Positions 9,055-54,945 of a DNA stretch of 64,000 nucleotides are shown in pieces. The stretch is from Desulfobacterota bacterium AH_259_B03_O07 (GTDB taxonomy: Bacteria; Desulfobacterota_D; UBA1144; Nemesobacterales; CSP1-2). Under the pieces are notes generated by a model. It made no database searches. It saw only the letters and a list, made by a program, of their open reading frames with translations, and had not been told where the DNA came from. The position numbers and the translations under genes were made by a program. Within the stretch, counting starts at the first letter, position 1. Each line of letters opens with the position of its first letter. The stretch covers positions 1,951-65,950 of the forward strand of contig JALLOG010000001.1 in NCBI GenBank assembly GCA_027717645.1, given 5' to 3'.

Positions 9055-9233
9055 AGGTTGATACGATTCCGAATAAGGGGGTAAGGGTTAGGATATGAAC
9101 GCTCCGAAAGAGCATTTTCGCCAGGCTTACTCCACATCTCGATTGTAAACTTACTTATTTTTGACAAAACAGATCACCGGGCTGAGTGAGGATATAGTGA
9201 AGAACTCATAATTTGTACCATAAGAATATTTCC

Positions 9234-9422
9234 CTATTCTGATGTCAGGGAGATTAAGAAGTTGTGGCGTCCCACCAAGAAGTGATTAGGGTTTTTGTGA
9301 AAATTTTTTGGGTTCTTCATCCATTCTTCTATTACCTTTTCATAAGGCGTTACAAGTTTCAAAGAATTGAGCTTTATGGCGAAATTATAGGCCATCACAA
9401 AATCATGAAGATGAGATCTCAA
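9234..9422 (-). mobile_element. C-terminal remnant of a DDE (rve/IS481-like) transposase
   Basis: ...LEQLRSHLHDFVMAYNFAIKLNSLKLVTPYEKVIEEW matches the conserved tail of integrase-core transposases. No catalytic core lies upstream (in-frame stop about 25 codons up). Confidence 0.6.
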
Positions 9423-9463
9423 CTGCTCTAAAGAGTCGTACTTATATGTATTGGTTGGTATAA

Positions 9464-9571
9464 AATCCCAGGAGAACAGTAGGAGATGAGGTTACAGCAG
9501 AGGTGATACGCAAATACATAGAGTATCATGATCATGAGGAGATTCACACTAAGCAATTGAAGCTTTTTTAG
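9464..9571 (+). mobile_element. C-terminal remnant of an IS200/IS605-type Y1 transposase (TnpA)
   Basis: My translation reads NPRRTVGDEVTAEVIRKYIEYHDHEEIHTKQLKLF*, which resembles the TnpA tail (sTVG..e.IrkYI..q). Only about 35 codons are open. Confidence 0.5.
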
Positions 9572-9608
9572 AGGTTCATTTGTAAAAGTCGGTTTCTGCT
9601 TAAAGAAG

Positions 9609-9627
9609 CCCCCACCTGTGGTGGGGG
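9609..9627. repeat. perfect 8-bp GC-rich hairpin (CCCCCACC tgt GGTGGGGG) 38 nt after the TnpA remnant
   Basis: Read directly from the sequence. The position is consistent with an IS200/IS605 subterminal hairpin or a terminator. Confidence 0.6.
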
Positions 9628-9796
9628 ATTTTCACTAATAAACATCCTTTTTTAACTGGTCTGCTCCTCTGTGCTTCTTATTGGTCAAGGTTACCAACTA
9701 TACTTAGCTTTCCCTTTTTTATTATCATGCTTTCTGATAAATGGTATTTAGATTTCAAGGATAATACTATTTCAAGAAGAATAAATTTAAAGCCCC

Positions 9797-10345
9797 TTGT
9801 TTTGCTTGCCTTTGATATTAGGAATATTTGTTTTTCTAAACTATAGCTACAATTTCGTCAGATTTGGTACCTCTTTCGATGCTGCATGTAAGATGGTTAA
9901 AGTTAACCAGCAACCCTGGTTTAATAGGGGCTTATTTAGCTTGTCCTATATACCATATCATCTTTCGGTTGTACTGTTTAAGCTCCCTGGAGTTATTTCA
10001 GACCCCCCTTATATCGTTCCTTCTTTGTCTGGTTTGTCTATCTTCTTAACTACCCCTGCTTTTATATATGCGTTTTTGGCCGGAGTGAGAAATAAACTAG
10101 CATTGGCTTGCTGGCTTGGGATAATACCTGTAGCATTTCTAATATTTATAAAAGCTGGTACGAGTTGGACAATGTTCGGTTATCGATATGCGATGGATTT
10201 CTATCCATTTTTACTTATTCTGACTGTTAGAGGCATTGGTAAGGAAATAAAATGGCACCATAAACTACTCATCATTTTCGGCATCCTAGTAAACCTTTGG
10301 GGTGTAATTTCCATTAATAAGCTAGCACATTTTGCTTGGTGGTAA
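9797..10345 (+). pseudogene. C-terminal portion of a GT-C-fold (ArnT/PMT_2-like) membrane glycosyltransferase, apparently 5'-truncated
   Basis: 182 aa, polytopic, TTG start. FGYRYAMDFYPFLLIL is typical of the C-terminal part of roughly 500-aa GT-C enzymes. IS remnants lie directly upstream. Confidence 0.45.
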
Positions 10346-10425
10346 TGGTAATTGATCTTCTAGCTTATCTTATGTACTGTTAACTCCACCTAATTTCAGA
10401 AAAGATTATTATATCGTTATAAATA

Positions 10426-11031
10426 ATGACGCTAACGGATCTGTGGCACAGGCCATACTTAGGGCCAATAATAGTATACGTTTTAGTCATAATTCTCATC
10501 GTTCTAATGCGAATTTTAATTCCTGGGGATTATGCGTTTTCTTTTGCCGCAATCCTGATGTTTTCCATCCCCTTTATTTTGAGGGGTGAAATGAAGGGTT
10601 TTAGGTGGGATGCCAAGGGCTTTTTAACGGGATTAGTTGTGTCCTTCGTTATTCTTATCCTATATGTTATTCTTATTTTAGTCTTTACCGACCACACCAT
10701 CAATACAAGCAGGATTACCTCTTCCTTAATAATTGTTCAACTCTTTTTTATTTCTATCCCAGAGGAGGTTTTTTTTCGTGGTTATCTTCAGGAAAAATTG
10801 GGAAATAACTTAAAGGGTGTAGTAATTGTGAGTTTTCTTTTTGCTTTGGGTCATTTTTTTACAATATGCTTGTTGGGTGGATTTCAGGGGTTGGTCTGTG
10901 CTCAAAACCTTCTTACATTTTTCCCGTCTATTGTAATGGGATATCTTTATTTAAAAACAGGAACTCTTTGGGGCAGTATAGTTTTTCATTTCCTTTCCAA
11001 TATTGTCTATATATCAACTGGTGGGATCTAA
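10426..11031 (+). CDS. CPBP-family intramembrane glutamic endopeptidase (CAAX protease-like)
   Basis: IPEEVFFRGYLQ (EExxxR), FALGHF and FHFLSN motifs; multiple TM segments. Confidence 0.85.
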   Translation: MTLTDLWHRPYLGPIIVYVLVIILIVLMRILIPGDYAFSFAAILMFSIPFILRGEMKGFRWDAKGFLTGLVVSFVILILYVILILVFTDHTINTSRITSSLIIVQLFFISIPEEVFFRGYLQEKLGNNLKGVVIVSFLFALGHFFTICLLGGFQGLVCAQNLLTFFPSIVMGYLYLKTGTLWGSIVFHFLSNIVYISTGGI

Positions 11032-48473: not shown

Positions 48474-48497
48474 CCTTGTCTCAGGATGATGATGAAT

Positions 48498-48571
48498 TGG
48501 CTGGGGCGGGTGGATTCGAACCACCATAGCAGGCTCCAAAGGCCTGAGTCCTGCCATTAGACGACGCCCCA
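48498..48571 (-). tRNA. tRNA-Gln (UUG), CCA encoded
   Basis: Reverse complement: UGGGGCGUCGUCUAAUGGCAGGACUCAGGCCUUUGGAGCCUGCUAUGGUGGUUCGAAUCCACCCGCCCCAGCCA. Clean cloverleaf with U1-A72 and G73, as in bacterial tRNA-Gln. Confidence 0.92.
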
Positions 48572-49744: not shown

Positions 49745-49960
49745 TGAAATTGAACAAATATTAGGTAATAATGAATTAATTCATTTTTTTCCATTATATC
49801 GAGCTAAAAGAATTCCAAACTAGTATGGCTTTTCTCTTTATTATATAATTGCTTGACATTAAATGTTTATACTGATTATCATATTTCCCAATTTTGGTAC
49901 AGCATTCAAATAAACTATAATCGTGTCTATGCATTGTATTTTTACATTAAGGAGGAAAAT

Positions 49961-50365
49961 ATGAAATTAAAAAAATGGGTTCTGTTGGGATTAATAGCAG
50001 TTGTACCACTTTTAAATCAGGGTTGTTGGGCTGCGGCAGCTGGAACGGTGGGTGTAGCAGCCGGTGCTGGAACTATTGCATACATTAAAGGCGAGCTTAA
50101 GGCAACCGAAGCCTATTCCGTACCTGACGTTTGGATAGCAACAGAGAAAGCAGTTGACGAGATGCAATTGATTGTGACCGAGAAAGAGCACGACGTTACA
50201 GCAGGAAGACTTGATGCCTATACTGCTGATAACCAGAAGGTACGCATAAGCCTTAAAAGACATGGTGATAACATTACTGAAATAACGATTCGAATTGGAA
50301 CTCTTGGTGACCAAGAACTCTCCCGTTTTATTTTATCAAAGATACAGAAGAATCTAAAAGGATAA
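49961..50365 (+). CDS. DUF3568-like lipoprotein (copy A)
   Basis: AGGAGG RBS. MKLKKWVLLGLIAVVPLLNQGC carries the lipobox. The C-terminal 91 aa are 89% identical to 52137..52412. Confidence 0.75.
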   Translation: MKLKKWVLLGLIAVVPLLNQGCWAAAAGTVGVAAGAGTIAYIKGELKATEAYSVPDVWIATEKAVDEMQLIVTEKEHDVTAGRLDAYTADNQKVRISLKRHGDNITEITIRIGTLGDQELSRFILSKIQKNLKG

Positions 50366-50400
50366 ATAAATCTTACAGACCTAAGCTTGAATATTAAATC

Positions 50401-50580
50401 TTAATTCTTCAGGTCGGTTAAAGCTGAAAATTTAGCACCATACCAGTCAATATAATCGCCAAGTCGTTTTTCGATGAATTCTATTTCTTTATCTGTAAGT
50501 TCTCTTTCTAGTTCCTGATCAGCTACGTTTTGTAAGTCATCAACATTGATGAAATAAATAACCCTATTTTTTGTTTTCAT
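50401..50580 (-). CDS. small acidic protein, family copy 1 (59 aa)
   Basis: My translation: MKTKNRVIYFINVDDLQNVADQELERELTDKEIEFIEKRLGDYIDWYGAKFSALTDLKN. It is a paralogue of 52446..52640 and is 1 aa below the ORF-track cutoff. Confidence 0.6.
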   Translation of the reverse strand: MKTKNRVIYFINVDDLQNVADQELERELTDKEIEFIEKRLGDYIDWYGAKFSALTDLKN

Positions 50581-50687
50581 AATTTTTAACCTTTATTAAT
50601 TTAAAGACGATTTCTGATATTGTGCATAAATTATACAAAACAGAAACTTCTTGCAATCATATAACAATCCAACCTAGTTGTGATACT

Positions 50688-51074
50688 TCATAATCTTTTT
50701 TCCTTATTTAAATACTGAATTATTTTATCTACAAATTTCTTTCCATTCTTAAGTATTCCTTCTGCCTCCACTTTGGTTATAACGAATGTATGATCATAGT
50801 CTCCTAGCTGTCTCTTTTCAAAAGCTCTATTTAGTTCCCTGCTCATTTCCTTTGCAAGAATATCTGTTTTGATGAAATGTTTTCCGAAAGCAGAAATCAC
50901 ACCTTTGTGAGACGAGAATTATAAGTTCTTACTAAGCAATGCTGCTTGAGCACAATACAACATCGCATAGTATGTTCTTGAAACTGAAGATTCGTAATCT
51001 CCATCCTTGAGAAGTACTTCTGCACTTTTGATATATCTTTTAGCCCTTTTAACTAGGGATTCTATTTCTTTCAA
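50688..51074 (-). pseudogene. HEPN-domain toxin gene with in-frame TAA at codon 52
   Basis: The TTG start overlaps the MNT stop (GCTTGA). The frame reads KEIESLVKRAKRYIKSAEVLLKDGDYESSVSRTYYAMLYCAQAALLSKNL-TAA(50919-50921)-FSSHKGVISAFGKHF...KRQLGDYDH (R-x6-H). Confidence 0.75.
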
Positions 51075-51385
51075 GCAGATATTCCTTCTCTCCGAACATT
51101 TATAAGTAGTGGGCTTTTTACTGTGGAATAGTCCTCTTCGGAGATGGGATAAACGAAGAGTAATACGCCATATTCTAGATTGATATCGGTAATGATGTTG
51201 ATCATTCTATCAACCTCTTTTCCAGGAATAACTTTCCCTTGGAGAACAATAAGCAGATCAATGTCTGATTCTTCTGTTGCATCACCTCTCGCCCATGAAC
51301 CATAGAGAACGATATCTTTTAATTTCTTACTATATAGTTTTTCAACTTCAGCTCTGAATTCATCAAGTATTTTATTTATTTTCAT
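51071..51385 (-). CDS. minimal nucleotidyltransferase (MNT) antitoxin
   Basis: LYGSWARGDATEESDIDLLIV (GSxxRGD...DxD); 104 aa. Confidence 0.88.
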   Translation of the reverse strand: MKINKILDEFRAEVEKLYSKKLKDIVLYGSWARGDATEESDIDLLIVLQGKVIPGKEVDRMINIITDINLEYGVLLFVYPISEEDYSTVKSPLLINVRREGISA

Positions 51386-51528
51386 AATATTGTCTCAAAA
51401 ATTTCACTCAATTTGTTAACCTTGGGATATTCGTTAGTGTTTTCTGGTTCTACAACCTCTTTTATTGCTTCTCTAACATAAAAATCACAGTGGATAAATA
51501 TACTTAATTTATGTTTCACTTCAATCAG

Positions 51529-51624
51529 TTAGCAATAAGTAAGTTCTCTATCTAATTCCTGTTCGGCTACATTCTGTAAGTCTTCAACATTTAAGGAATA
51601 AATAATCCTATTTTTCGTTTTCAT
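51529..51624 (-). pseudogene. truncated copy 2 of the small acidic ORF (first 28 codons only)
   Basis: MKTKNRIIYSLNVEDLQNVAEQELDRELT, then unrelated sequence and a stop. The ATG lies 4 nt after the HicB-like stop. Confidence 0.65.
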
Positions 51625-51628
51625 AATT

Positions 51629-51802
51629 TTAACTCCCATTGTTTTTGTTTAATTCTTCGATGGTTGCTAAATACGATTTTATTGCATCTCTTATCTTTTC
51701 TAAAGCTTCTTCTGAATCTCCCTGCGACCAGCAACCACGTAATCCAGGACACCAAACAGAGTAACCCTCGTCGGTCTTTTTGAGATTGACCTTATATCTC
51801 AT
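51629..51802 (-). CDS. HicB-family (UPF0150) antitoxin-like protein, 57 aa, no HicA partner seen
   Basis: My translation: MRYKVNLKKTDEGYSVWCPGLRGCWSQGDSEEALEKIRDAIKSYLATIEELNKNNGS. AAGGAG RBS upstream. Confidence 0.65.
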   Translation of the reverse strand: MRYKVNLKKTDEGYSVWCPGLRGCWSQGDSEEALEKIRDAIKSYLATIEELNKNNGS

Positions 51803-51965
51803 AACGTATACTCCTTAATGTCTTTGTAGATGAAGTTAATATCTTAGCAATTTTATTAGACTTAAACGAGCTGATTTTATACGGCTTGCTAAAGTGTTTC
51901 TATTTTCATTTTACTGCATAATACTAGGTTTAAGTTTTCCGAAGCAATCCGTACAACAAAGTCTA

Positions 51966-52412
51966 ATGGATCGTTGGCGTGGCGCTATTAAATTAAAAAT
52001 ATGGTTTCTTTTAGGATTACTCGGAATTATACCACTTTTAAATCAGGGTTCTTATACGTTTAGTCCGATGGGGGATGTAGTGGTACCATTAGTTAGACAA
52101 ATTCATGTACCTCCTGGAACAGTTGCTTATGTTACGGGTGAGCTTAAGGCAACCGAAGCTTATTCAGTATCTGACGTATGGATAGCAACAGAGAAAGCGG
52201 TTGACGAGATGCAATTGGTTGTGACGGATAAAGAGCACGACGTTACCGCAGGAAGACTTGATGCCTATACTGCTGATAATAAGAAGGCACGCATAAGCCT
52301 GAAGAGACAAGGTGATAACATTACCGAAATTACGATTCGAATTGGGATATTCGGAGACGAAGAACTATCTCGTTTTATTTTATCCAAGATACAGAGGAAT
52401 TTAAAAGGATAA
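51966..52412 (+). CDS. DUF3568-like protein (copy B), lipobox Cys and ancestral ATG lost
   Basis: The ancestral ATG AAA TTA is now ATT AAA TTA, and LLNQGC is now LLNQGS. A new upstream ATG (MDRWRGAIKLKIW...) keeps the ORF open. Confidence 0.55.
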   Translation: MDRWRGAIKLKIWFLLGLLGIIPLLNQGSYTFSPMGDVVVPLVRQIHVPPGTVAYVTGELKATEAYSVSDVWIATEKAVDEMQLVVTDKEHDVTAGRLDAYTADNKKARISLKRQGDNITEITIRIGIFGDEELSRFILSKIQRNLKG

Positions 52413-52445
52413 TCGCTATTATTACTGCTGTTCTAAGATATATAT

Positions 52446-52640
52446 TCAATTCTTTGATCCTAGTTCGTTTAGATCATTTAAAGCTAGGGTTATTGTTCCA
52501 TACCAATCTATATAGTCATCAATCCGGTTTTCAATAAATTCTATTTCTTTATCTGTTAGTTCTCTGTCTAGTTCCTGATCAGCTACATTTTGTAAGTCTT
52601 CGACATTGATGGAATAAACTATCCTTTCTCTTGCACTCAT
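52446..52640 (-). CDS. small acidic protein, family copy 3 (64 aa)
   Basis: MSARERIVYSINVEDLQNVADQELDRELTDKEIEFIENRIDDYIDWYG... with a GGAGGT RBS. It lies 76 nt downstream of the EVE-nuclease gene. Confidence 0.65.
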   Translation of the reverse strand: MSARERIVYSINVEDLQNVADQELDRELTDKEIEFIENRIDDYIDWYGTITLALNDLNELGSKN

Positions 52641-52716
52641 GGTTTTATACCTCCATTGTTACGAGTTTAATATTTAACTCATAGTTGTAGTCAGCAAGAT
52701 GCACACTTTCATAAAA

Positions 52717-53586
52717 TTATCTTTTAAAAATACCTAGAGCTCGCTCCAAATCTTTGTAATCCCTTTTCTTTTCAAGCAACTCCTTAATTGAGGTGATATC
52801 AATAAATCGCATTTGATCTGCTACTTCGTGAAAGGTTCCCGATAGCAATTCCTCGTACTTGCTCTTATCACCCATGGTTGCAACCAGAAAAATATGACTA
52901 TTCCAAAGGTCGAAAGCATGTTTAAGTTTAGCCATCGCATGATAAATGTCTCCACCGATTTGTACTTCGAACACAAACGTGGGAACCGAACGCTCGACCC
53001 TGCGCCAAACAACATCAAGGCGTGTACTTTCTAGTGCATACTCCTCATCAGCAATGTAGCCTTGAACACGACCTATCTCTGCCAAATAAGCTTTTAAATC
53101 ATCATGTTTAATTGCGCCGGGCTCAGTTGTAGCTCTGTCTGCGACTATGGGCAAAATGGTAGTTTCGGTTAGAGGCTTTAAATCCAAGGCAACTCTTGCA
53201 GCATTTACTTCTTCAATAGGGTAGCACTGAAAGACCATTCTGCTTATCATCTGTAAATCATGTGAGGTATATCTGCGAGACTTCCATAAGCTGGGGGGAA
53301 GACAATACTCAATATCGAATTCAAAGCGGAGCGGCCAAATTACTTCATTTCTCTTTATTTCATCTGGCCAGAGAGGATTCGTCTGTCTGAACTTTGTCAC
53401 CACATGTCCAAAACCAATTATTCCATGTACTGGTTTGGACACGTAGAAAAGCAAACCATCTCCTTCACGGAGCATGCTCCACAAAGACCTGAGCTCTCGA
53501 AAATCCTTTAATCCCCAAAGGTTGCTATTTTCAAAAGCTACTTTCCAGTTTTTCTCAGATCCGACTACAAGCCAGAATTGATGCAT
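52717..53586 (-). CDS. EVE/PUA-like domain fused to a PD-(D/E)xK-like (restriction-endonuclease-fold) domain
   Basis: N-terminus: FWLVVGSEKNWKVAFENSNLWGLKD...LREGDGLLFYVSKPVHGIIGFGHVV...VIWPLRFEF. C-terminus: EYALESTRLDVVWRR-x9-FVFEVQIGGDIYHAMAKLKHA (E186, D191, E207-x-Q209). Confidence 0.55.
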   Translation of the reverse strand: MHQFWLVVGSEKNWKVAFENSNLWGLKDFRELRSLWSMLREGDGLLFYVSKPVHGIIGFGHVVTKFRQTNPLWPDEIKRNEVIWPLRFEFDIEYCLPPSLWKSRRYTSHDLQMISRMVFQCYPIEEVNAARVALDLKPLTETTILPIVADRATTEPGAIKHDDLKAYLAEIGRVQGYIADEEYALESTRLDVVWRRVERSVPTFVFEVQIGGDIYHAMAKLKHAFDLWNSHIFLVATMGDKSKYEELLSGTFHEVADQMRFIDITSIKELLEKKRDYKDLERALGIFKR

Positions 53587-53631
53587 TACTATGACCTAAG
53601 GTATTATGTTAAAATTTAGTTTACAAAATGC

Positions 53632-54945
53632 TCAGATATATTCTCCTTTATATGCCCAATCTAATAATTCGATTGGATGGACCGTTTTAATATTTAGGCC
53701 TTCTTGTTTGATCCCTTTTTGAATCTGGAGTAGGCAGCCTGGATTTCCAGCAACAAGCAACTCAGCGTTGGTTTCTTTCAGATTTTCGATCTTACGATTA
53801 AGCAATTTTTCTGACATCTCAGGTTCAATTAGGTTGTAAATTCCTGCACTTCCACAACACAGCTCTGATTCTGGCATCTCGACAAATTCTATACCAGGTA
53901 TTTGTTTAATTATTTCTCTTGGTTGGATTTTTATCCGCTGGGCATGGGCGATATGGCATGCGTCCTGGTATGTCACTCTACATTTTAATCTTTTTAATTC
54001 TCCACTAAGGCCTATTTCCGATAAAAATTCCATTACGTCTTTCGTTTTCTGGCTTATCTTTTCCGCCCGATTAGCGTAGTTGGGGTCATCTTTTAGGATT
54101 TCTCCATATTCCTTCATTGCGGAACCACATCCAGCGGAGTTTACAATTATTGTATCAACACCATGTTTTTCAAATACGTCTATATTAGATCGGGCGAAGT
54201 TACGTGCTTCAGATATTCTTCCTGAATGAAGAGAAAGTGCACCACAGCAGCCTTGATTCCCGGGAACGATTACCTCACAACCGTTTTCCGATAAAACTCT
54301 AATAGTAGCCTCATTTGTTTTGGGAAAGAGAATACTCTGAACACATCCGGTAAGAGTTGCAACTCTATGGCGTTTTGTTCCTTTAGCTGGCATAAAATTA
54401 GGCATAGATGAAAATAAATTTGAGGAATTAATTTGAGGTAACATTAGATCCATTGTGGCCAGTTTCTTAGAAAGCTTGAGGAGAATCCCAGTAGACTCGA
54501 CCAAGCGCCTGAGTCCAGTTGCTTGATACAAATAAAGAAATGGAAGAAGAAATCGGAGTCTCTTGGGATAAGGAAAAATGGAAAATAATATAGCACGTTG
54601 AAGCTTATCGGTAATAGGTCTTTCGTAACGTCTTTCAATTTGTGATCTTGCGGCTTCTATAAGCCTTGAATAATCAACTCCAGATGGACATGCTGGCTCA
54701 CATGCCATACAGCCAAGACACATGTCCAGATGTTTAACTAAAGATCCACCCATGGGGATCTTTCCCTCTAAGGCTGATTTCATGAGATAAATTCTCCCTC
54801 TGGGAGAATCAAGTTCATTTCCCGTTTCTAAATATGTAGGACAGGCAGAAAGACAGAATCCACAATGCACGCAGTCTTTAATGAAGTCCATGCTAGGTGT
54901 GTCAATTTCATCAAATGCTTGAAAGTTTGTAGTTTTCTCTTCCAT
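53632..54945 (-). CDS. glcF: glycolate oxidase iron-sulfur subunit
   Basis: CVHCGFCLSACPTY and CLGCMACEPACPSG ferredoxin motifs, plus two CCG-type domains (CCGSAG). Confidence 0.88.
   Translation of the reverse strand: MEEKTTNFQAFDEIDTPSMDFIKDCVHCGFCLSACPTYLETGNELDSPRGRIYLMKSALEGKIPMGGSLVKHLDMCLGCMACEPACPSGVDYSRLIEAARSQIERRYERPITDKLQRAILFSIFPYPKRLRFLLPFLYLYQATGLRRLVESTGILLKLSKKLATMDLMLPQINSSNLFSSMPNFMPAKGTKRHRVATLTGCVQSILFPKTNEATIRVLSENGCEVIVPGNQGCCGALSLHSGRISEARNFARSNIDVFEKHGVDTIIVNSAGCGSAMKEYGEILKDDPNYANRAEKISQKTKDVMEFLSEIGLSGELKRLKCRVTYQDACHIAHAQRIKIQPREIIKQIPGIEFVEMPESELCCGSAGIYNLIEPEMSEKLLNRKIENLKETNAELLVAGNPGCLLQIQKGIKQEGLNIKTVHPIELLDWAYKGEYI

Follow-up and report, generated by a model that had tools for sequence, protein, structure and literature searches.

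A two-domain protein encoded downstream of glcF

We analysed a 64,000-nucleotide stretch of DNA from Desulfobacterota bacterium AH_259_B03_O07 (contig JALLOG010000001.1, positions 1,951 to 65,950; hereafter the window, with coordinates counted from its first letter). Our subject is a gene on its reverse strand, here called the EVE gene, whose 289-residue product carries an EVE (PUA-like) domain in its N-terminal half and a module of predicted PD-(D/E)XK fold in its C-terminal half. A preliminary description, made from the letters alone, had proposed that the product is a candidate modification-dependent nuclease. Judged from sequence and structure models, this appears to be the best reading of the gene. 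Its parts are as follows.

52717..53586, reverse strand: EVE-linker-nuclease-fold open reading frame (ORF), 289 amino acids (aa) plus stop, ATG start (ORF listing).
53182..53586, reverse strand: predicted EVE (PUA-like) modified-base reader domain, residues 1-135 (Pfam, NCBIfam and fold matches).
53107..53181, reverse strand: variable inter-domain linker, residues 136-160 (alignment A1, model confidence and substitution rates).
52720..53106, reverse strand: C-terminal module of predicted PD-(D/E)XK fold, an unannotated family, residues 161-289 (structure model).
52921..53016, reverse strand: putative active-site segment, with D191 at 53014-53016, E207 at 52966-52968, Q209 at 52960-52962 and K222 at 52921-52923 (alignment A3 and model).

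The 289-aa frame with its ATG, as first described, is present in the ORF listing. The EVE-side motifs of the preliminary description were also found where it had placed them (W5..VG9...N13W14, G42D.L.FY.S50, I57GFGHV62 and W84PLRF88), except that nine residues separate W14 from W24G25, where its pattern implied six. Profile searches upheld the EVE call: residues 3-84 matched Pfam PF01878 (EVE) with 25.0 bits against a gathering score of 23, and most homologues carry PF01878 as a precomputed annotation. NCBIfam PRK00809, the archaeal UPF0310 EVE family, matched at 2e-8, which is under its family cut-off. The nearest solved proteins by sequence were PH1033, MJECL36 and PSPTO5229 (2eve), all weak matches. 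In a two-domain AlphaFold model the N-terminal half reached a predicted local distance difference test score (pLDDT) of only 50-74, and a Foldseek search with this low-confidence half gave a weak fold match, the best entries in the PDB being 2hd9 (E 1.5e-3), 2gbs, 1zce and the EVE-HNH enzyme VcaM4I (6yex). For residues 3-89 the archaeal UPF0310 proteins PH1033 and MJECL36 (PRK00809) matched best in both sequence and fold, albeit weakly (E 0.05-0.2 by sequence); unlike the window protein, UPF0310 EVE proteins are single-domain, about 145 aa long and devoid of a nuclease module. Residues W5, W14, W24, W36, Y48, W73 and W84 were invariant in 40 close homologues, and the ratio of nonsynonymous to synonymous substitution rates (ω) of the EVE domain was 0.02-0.09. 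The linker that follows, about 25 residues long, is the sole poorly conserved stretch of alignment A1, with pLDDT below 50 and ω mostly 0.2-1.4.

Pfam bore out only the first half of the proposed fusion: EVE scored above its cut-off, but no PDDEXK family matched, and the C-terminal domain, whether of the window protein or of 84 + 46 relatives, drew no Pfam match even with E values up to 10 allowed. It likewise matched none of the Mrr_cat Pfam models and nothing in NCBIfam, PHROG or the PDB (single sequence and profile), and hhalign gave it a probability of 0.3% of relatedness to the EcoO109I-like family described below. Because sequence searches found nothing usable, the C-terminal fold is assigned from structure prediction only. 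An AlphaFold model of residues 150-289, computed from a diverse 46-sequence alignment, had a pLDDT of 94.1 and a predicted template modelling score of 0.86. Its topology, a-b-b-b-a-b-a-b-a, contains the alpha-beta-beta-beta-alpha-beta core of the PD-(D/E)XK superfamily. Restriction-endonuclease-fold proteins were prominent in the top PDB ranks (the R2 endonuclease domain, NGO0050, SfsA and YaeQ, and also BpuSI, I-Bth0305I, MUS81, Can2 and Card1). Five predicted viral structures in BFVD matched at E<1e-3 (down to 3.6e-4), with probability 1.00 and template modelling (TM) scores of about 0.55; the named ones were a 'PD-(D/E)XK nuclease', a 'RecB family nuclease', a 'restriction endonuclease' and a 'type IV Mrr domain'. 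Structure searches of the models returned PD-(D/E)XK-like folds and, from the low-confidence half, EVE-like ones; the restriction-endonuclease-fold call withstood the check. The ω of this domain was 0.04-0.06, so that both halves evolve under strong purifying selection while the linker is relaxed.

We then turned to the putative active site. The residues of the pattern E186-x4-D191-x15-E207-V-Q209 are all present as numbered in the preliminary description; E186, on the other hand, is not conserved across the wider family. The helix motif given there as Y..A.KL actually reads Y215-H-A-M-A-K220-L221 (Y.A.AKL). In alignment A3, which covers the diverged family at 34-58% identity, D191 never varies, and conservation is at least 90% at E207 and K222. 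The conserved positions of A3 comprise H161, G172, D191, W194, P202, F206-E207-x-(Q/H)209, G212, L221-K222, A224, W228 and F252, while H253 and E254 are invariant among close homologues only. The 40 close homologues all share D191 and E207, and nearly all of them share Q209. In the model D191 falls on core strand 2 and E207 and Q209 on strand 3, the strands expected for the PD-(D/E)XK motif, with K222 on the helix after them. A D...E-x-[QK] spacing turned up in 66% of shuffles of the window protein, and the motif alone is therefore not significant; the observation exceeds chance because EVE scores above the Pfam gathering score, D191, E207 and Q209 are conserved, and the PD-(D/E)XK-like fold is predicted with confidence.

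The C-terminal module is reused behind other domains. With residues 150-289 as the query, a search of 1.84 billion representatives recovered 437 clusters (50% identity); the proteins that hold the module are roughly 50-526 aa long, and many are fragments. Among 84 scanned proteins the module was preceded by EVE in 15, DUF1802 in 6, Mrr_N in 4 and HARE-HTH in 2. SAP and winged-helix domains also precede it, DUF5655 follows it in one case, and one protein has the architecture Mrr_N + HARE-HTH + module. In these relatives the module takes the position of Mrr_cat behind Mrr_N and HARE-HTH readers, and a viral 'type IV Mrr domain' protein is among its fold matches; it differs from Mrr-type enzymes in lacking a sequence match to Mrr_cat and, in the window protein, in having EVE as the reader. 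A combinatorial mix of effector nuclease domains is typical of modification-dependent restriction enzymes (PMC6765204, PMC12191111), and the varied fusions predicted here fit that pattern.

Conservation and genomic site

Searches with the whole protein retrieved 1564 homologues. The top 120 were near-full-length (252-291 aa, mostly 289) and 69-92% identical, and their names range over Methanophagales, Thermodesulfobacteriota, Omnitrophota, Chloroflexota, Planctomycetota and Poribacteria. When 185,579 species genomes were scanned with a sequence pattern, 45 loci emerged, all in metagenome-assembled genomes; they belong to more than 12 phyla, archaeal ones among them. Between distant loci, DNA similarity runs exactly from the start codon to the stop codon. 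We considered recent horizontal transfer as the cause of the high identity and rejected it because synonymous sites are saturated between phyla; the identity therefore reflects constraint. The patchy distribution and the absence of synteny imply that the gene was transferred at some time.

The surroundings of the gene in the window include two further features.

52446..52640, reverse strand: small acidic ORF, 64 aa, isoelectric point (pI) 4.05 (ORF listing; homologues at relatives' loci).
50791..53648, no strand: about 2.9 kb of extra sequence relative to the related locus L133, between glcF and the native small-ORF/DUF3568 pair (blastn collinearity breaks).

glcF ends 45 bp upstream of the EVE gene and the small acidic ORF, which the preliminary description had placed downstream, starts 76 bp beyond it. 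The EVE gene is probably co-transcribed with both; a promoter and terminator scan around it did no better than shuffles and gave no convincing signal in the gaps between these genes. Past the small ORF lie DUF3568, HicB-like, MNT and HEPN genes and then a second DUF3568/small-ORF copy, so that the gene does sit at the edge of a toxin-antitoxin islet, as had been stated (ORF listing, Pfam and blastn against L133). The locus L133 has the glcE-DUF3891-glcF ... ispE backbone in common with the window, but its site holds a small ORF and DUF3568 only and no EVE remnant. The cargo of the extra 2.9 kb in the window is the EVE gene, the second small-ORF/DUF3568 copy and the HicB-like, MNT and HEPN genes. 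At the same site, locus L134 carries pieces of NmeDI-like and HinfI-like restriction genes and no EVE gene, locus L051 (92% protein identity) carries an EVE gene together with NmeDI-like/HinfI-like pieces, and the P0008 contigs carry only glcF, the EVE gene and the small ORF. Since the gene is missing from the same site in L133 and L134 and the cargo differs among relatives, with toxin-antitoxin genes in some and restriction genes in others, the EVE gene is an accessory gene at a variable site downstream of glcF.

Restriction-modification genes in relatives

We wondered which genes accompany the EVE gene elsewhere. Among the 146 nearest neighbours at 47 loci, RE_EcoO109I was the most frequent family (13 matches) and the only one that recurred across unrelated genomic contexts. 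The other recurrent neighbours were housekeeping genes common to related loci (SecA, peptidase M16, DegV, UvrB and others). The only enriched neighbours are restriction-modification (RM) genes, and not tRNA-modification or other housekeeping genes. We added 80 further metagenomic loci, making 129 in all, and counted neighbours wherever the flank was assessable. At 42 of 93 loci the next gene downstream, in the same orientation, is EcoO109I-like; at 34 of 112, N6/N4 methyltransferase sequence immediately precedes the EVE gene; and at 41 of 93 (about 44%) neither a restriction gene nor a small ORF is found downstream. In relatives at 60-80% identity the EVE gene stands between the methyltransferase ORF and the EcoO109I-like gene. 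Among loci assessable on both sides, the restriction gene was present as follows.

At least 80% identity to the window protein (the window's subclade): 1 of 10 loci.
70-80% identity: 21 of 29 loci.
60-70% identity: 14 of 20 loci.
Below 60% identity: 1 of 22 loci.

The adjacent methyltransferase ORF never passes reference residue 221 (Pfam positions 2-172 of 221), whereas an intact comparator in L025 covers Pfam positions 1-220. The absent C-terminal part is, we take it, where the S-adenosylmethionine (AdoMet)-binding motif of this family lies. The form of 214-221 aa (L110 3314-3979, also L103, L104 and L113; L073 3300-3944) stops right after '...NHSATFP'. The 221-aa form always has the same end residues and evolves with an ω of 0.03-0.07 at unsaturated synonymous divergence (dS), so that we rejected a decaying pseudogene; the ORF is a maintained 'half methyltransferase'. 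Shorter forms of 58-89 aa have an in-frame internal deletion and an ω of 0.10-0.31, and these may be decaying pseudogenes. We also rejected the idea that the methyltransferase piece and the EVE protein form one protein by read-through or frameshifting, as their coordinates put the two ORFs in one reading frame in L110 but in different frames in L073 and L002. A homing-type insertion of the EVE gene into a methyltransferase gene found no support either: no C-terminal methyltransferase remainder lies downstream, and there are no flanking repeats or conserved ends around the EVE gene.

The EcoO109I-like gene occurs in two forms. Where the small ORF is absent it is complete (ω 0.03-0.14). With the small ORF upstream, it is without exception shortened by about 45 residues at the N terminus (Pfam 50-198 of 198; ω 0.06-0.10), as in L110 5154-5729 and 15 other loci. 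Both forms are under purifying selection. The flanks, where annotated or screened, hold unrelated housekeeping genes and seldom an intact methyltransferase. A literature search did not find EcoO109I and EVE domains mentioned together.

These observations raise the possibility that the EVE-nuclease does not work alone but is a non-autonomous subunit of an RM-derived system made up of methyltransferase-like, EVE-nuclease, small acidic and EcoO109I-like proteins. It would read the modification state of DNA and target or license the EcoO109I-like nuclease, and the window copy would be an orphaned remnant that has retained the small ORF as its sole partner. The frequency of both partners, the low ω of a methyltransferase ORF that ends by Pfam position 172, the selection on both forms of the restriction gene and the unrelated flanks all speak for such a system. 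Against it, about 44% of the loci assessable downstream have neither partner there, the restriction gene is rare in the window's own subclade and below 60% identity, and solitary copies are under equally strong selection (ω 0.09 at a dS of 0.40 for the EVE genes of the window and L051). In addition, tblastn of the window found no remnant of the methyltransferase or the EcoO109I-like gene. We therefore hold this arrangement to be possible but doubtful. Just as tentative is a wider proposal, which puts the EVE-nuclease at the centre of an undescribed restriction system that arose from a type II RM operon and distinguishes self from non-self by reading modifications rather than writing them, with the window gene as its stripped-down survivor. 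In that proposal the methyltransferase without its AdoMet-binding end would be kept as a sequence-specific base-flipping sensor, the EVE-nuclease and often the small acidic protein would have been inserted, and the EcoO109I-like endonuclease would be retained without a working cognate methyltransferase nearby.

Some further observations concern single loci. L016 (5856-6521) and L027 (4031-4693) have EcoO109I-like genes with a 37-column internal deletion and His for the conserved Asp of GIDLEF, and these copies are probably inactive. In L025 a 430-aa protein with a complete N6_N4 methyltransferase and a C-terminal SNase domain is encoded two genes downstream of the EVE gene (9195-10487). At two unrelated loci, L001 (3672-7349) and L052 (9585-12870), intein-bearing LAGLIDADG genes lie within a few kb of the EVE gene; their hosts are ribonucleotide reductase and DNA polymerase III alpha, and the proximity is probably coincidental.

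Candidate functions of the EVE-nuclease protein

Taken together, the results lead us to favour, with a probability of roughly 0.55, the reading that the EVE gene encodes a predicted stand-alone, type IV-like, modification-dependent endonuclease. As in type IV enzymes, a reader and a nuclease fold are combined in one protein and no cognate methyltransferase, or remnant of one, was found around the gene in the window (ORF listing, Pfam and tblastn). Three further results strengthen the reading: the other readers joined to the module (Mrr_N, HARE-HTH, DUF1802 and SAP), the accessory status of the gene within extra sequence that also carries toxin-antitoxin genes, and the restriction to RM genes among enriched neighbours. 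As VcaM4I does, the EVE domain would flip a modified base from the DNA duplex and hold it in a hydrophobic pocket. The base would most likely be a methylated or hydroxymethylated cytosine, or a methylated adenine. Reading it would license the C-terminal domain, probably dimeric and with Mg2+ on D191/E207, to cut nearby, and Q/H209, possibly aided by K222 of the next helix, would stand in for the canonical lysine. We infer both that DNA is the substrate and that the phenotype is defence.

The protein belongs to a kind of enzyme that has been predicted before, and whose layout is proven for EVE-HNH. Among type IV restriction enzymes, EVE-PD(D/E)XK fusions already form a recognised class, though a predicted one (Bell, Wolf & Koonin 2020, PMC7641849), and the EVE-HNH enzymes VcaM4I and TspA15I are proven nucleases dependent on 5-methylcytosine or 5-hydroxymethylcytosine (PMC7897488, PMC6765204; PDB 6yex). 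The window protein resembles the former in joining an N-terminal EVE domain and a restriction-fold nuclease in one polypeptide that requires no methyltransferase. It departs from them in that its module belongs to no described Pfam family and has Q/H for the motif lysine, and in that many members of its family are nested between a methyltransferase-like ORF and an EcoO109I-like gene. In size and layout it is nearly the same as VcaM4I (EVE ~1-147, linker ~30, nuclease ~130; 309 aa against 289 aa), but VcaM4I has an HNH catalytic domain where the window protein has one of predicted PD-(D/E)XK fold, and the VcaM4I pocket residues P24, W82 and Y130 have no reliable alignment to the window protein.

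Several results weigh against a stand-alone nuclease. The base pocket of VcaM4I and 2eve could not be mapped onto the window protein, as the alignments reach residues 3-75 only. The matches of the C-terminal model in the PDB were weak (best E 0.018, TM at most 0.48), the HSDR_N-type likeness put forward earlier had no support in any sequence search, and no PADLOC model matches the protein. The family was not found in phages, plasmids or IMG/VR viral contigs. In many relatives the EVE gene lies inside a conserved operon of 3-4 genes and may not act alone. The replacement of the canonical ExK lysine by glutamine, noted in the preliminary description, holds for the window protein, and position 209 in alignment A3 is mostly Q or H and K in no member examined. 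The whole gene has an ω of 0.05-0.09, with dS saturated between phyla, and evolves far more slowly than is described for defence-type EVE proteins (PMC7641849). Slow-evolving housekeeping EVE proteins have been set apart from diverse defence ones (Bell, Wolf & Koonin 2020, PMC7641849); unlike the latter, the window family evolves slowly and lacks the 'pronounced sequence diversity' of the fast-evolving defence class. A slow-evolving EVE domain joined to a nuclease fold is an unusual combination.

The missing lysine is the starting point of another explanation, in which the C-terminal domain is a catalytically dead fold for dimerisation or DNA binding and the protein a modified-DNA-binding regulator or protector. 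No examined family member has a lysine at 209, and conservation this strong would suit a binding or regulatory EVE protein better than a defence nuclease (PMC7641849). A pure scaffold, however, would not need an acidic pair, yet D191 is invariant and E207 at least 90% conserved over the divergence of 437 clusters, and the module replaces Mrr-type catalytic domains behind Mrr_N readers. BglII (D84, E93, Q95) is an active PD-(D/E)XK enzyme in which Gln replaces Lys, so that Gln at 209 does not exclude catalysis. BglII too has E-x-Q in its third core strand after a conserved Asp in the second, a presumed equivalence of residues, but it has no detectable homology with the window protein. We regard a dead fold as unlikely, and the modification-dependent nuclease remains our preferred reading.

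An RNA-directed toxin would bind a modified tRNA or rRNA base through its EVE domain and cut RNA with its nuclease, the small acidic ORF serving as antitoxin. RNA binding is known for some EVE/PUA domains, and toxin-antitoxin systems with EVE domains exist (PMC7641849). The EVE gene has HEPN/MNT and HicB genes nearby and is followed, on the same strand, by the small acidic ORF. This ORF is a real gene under purifying selection (ω mostly 0.1-0.25); its family counts 56 clusters with no annotation. However, its homologues lie downstream of the EVE gene at only 22 of 93 assessable loci, too few for an obligate toxin-antitoxin pair, and since L133, L134 and L135 have the small ORF without the EVE gene, it is not an obligate partner. 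The other fusion partners of the module are DNA readers and the recurrent neighbours are DNA RM genes, all of which makes the toxin rather improbable. Finally, a housekeeping role, for example in repair at damaged or modified bases or in tRNA-modification-linked processing, would fit the housekeeping-level conservation and occasional UvrB, RecA and SSB neighbours, but with only 45 loci in the pattern-based scan, presence/absence polymorphism between close relatives and flanking genes that vary by locus with no consistent functional theme, it is very improbable.

The candidate nuclease stands out by an unprofiled nuclease module with an E-x-Q/H motif, by housekeeping-level conservation and, in relatives, by its nested place, with a maintained methyltransferase-like ORF that has no AdoMet site on one side and an EcoO109I-like nuclease on the other. 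If the protein is active as a modification-dependent nuclease, the type IV enzymes gain a new catalytic module (E-x-Q/H, with no existing profile); the same module, common to Mrr_N, HARE-HTH and DUF1802 fusions, could become a Pfam or PADLOC model. The extreme conservation suggests a fixed, widespread target modification, and the protein might serve as a reagent for detecting that mark. The nested operon of the relatives, where selection acts on an AdoMet-site-less methyltransferase as well as on an apparently unprotected restriction enzyme, raises the question of how RM operons are rebuilt into modification-reading systems.

In the Dehalococcoidia subfamily (about 50% identity; L032-L035, L037, L040 and L050) the EVE gene is syntenic with secA and phosphoribosyl pyrophosphate synthetase, and is flanked by two conserved small ORFs peculiar to that subfamily, a Cys-rich one of 61-80 aa upstream and a very acidic one of 71-82 aa downstream. 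Both are unrelated to the small ORF of the window; we rejected a single family for the two downstream types at an hhalign probability of 0.5%.

Some minor features of the window concern the islet itself. The unit of a DUF3568 lipoprotein-like gene and a small acidic ORF is duplicated about 2 kb apart (49960-50597 and 51986-52657; 77-88% nucleotide identity), and a third, partial copy of the small ORF lies at 51452-51641. The copies stand at the joints between inserted islet modules, as if marking recombination points. The HEPN gene (50688-51074, reverse strand), beside the MNT nucleotidyltransferase gene (51071-51385), has one in-frame stop that splits it into same-frame ORFs at 50919-51074 and 50688-50900, and is either a pseudogene or a recoded gene. 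The HicB-like antitoxin ORF (57 aa, 51629-51802, reverse strand) has no recognisable HicA toxin alongside. Outside the islet, a 76-nt stretch at 48497-48571 is 97% identical to L133, against about 69% in the surrounding genes, and is probably a tRNA gene.

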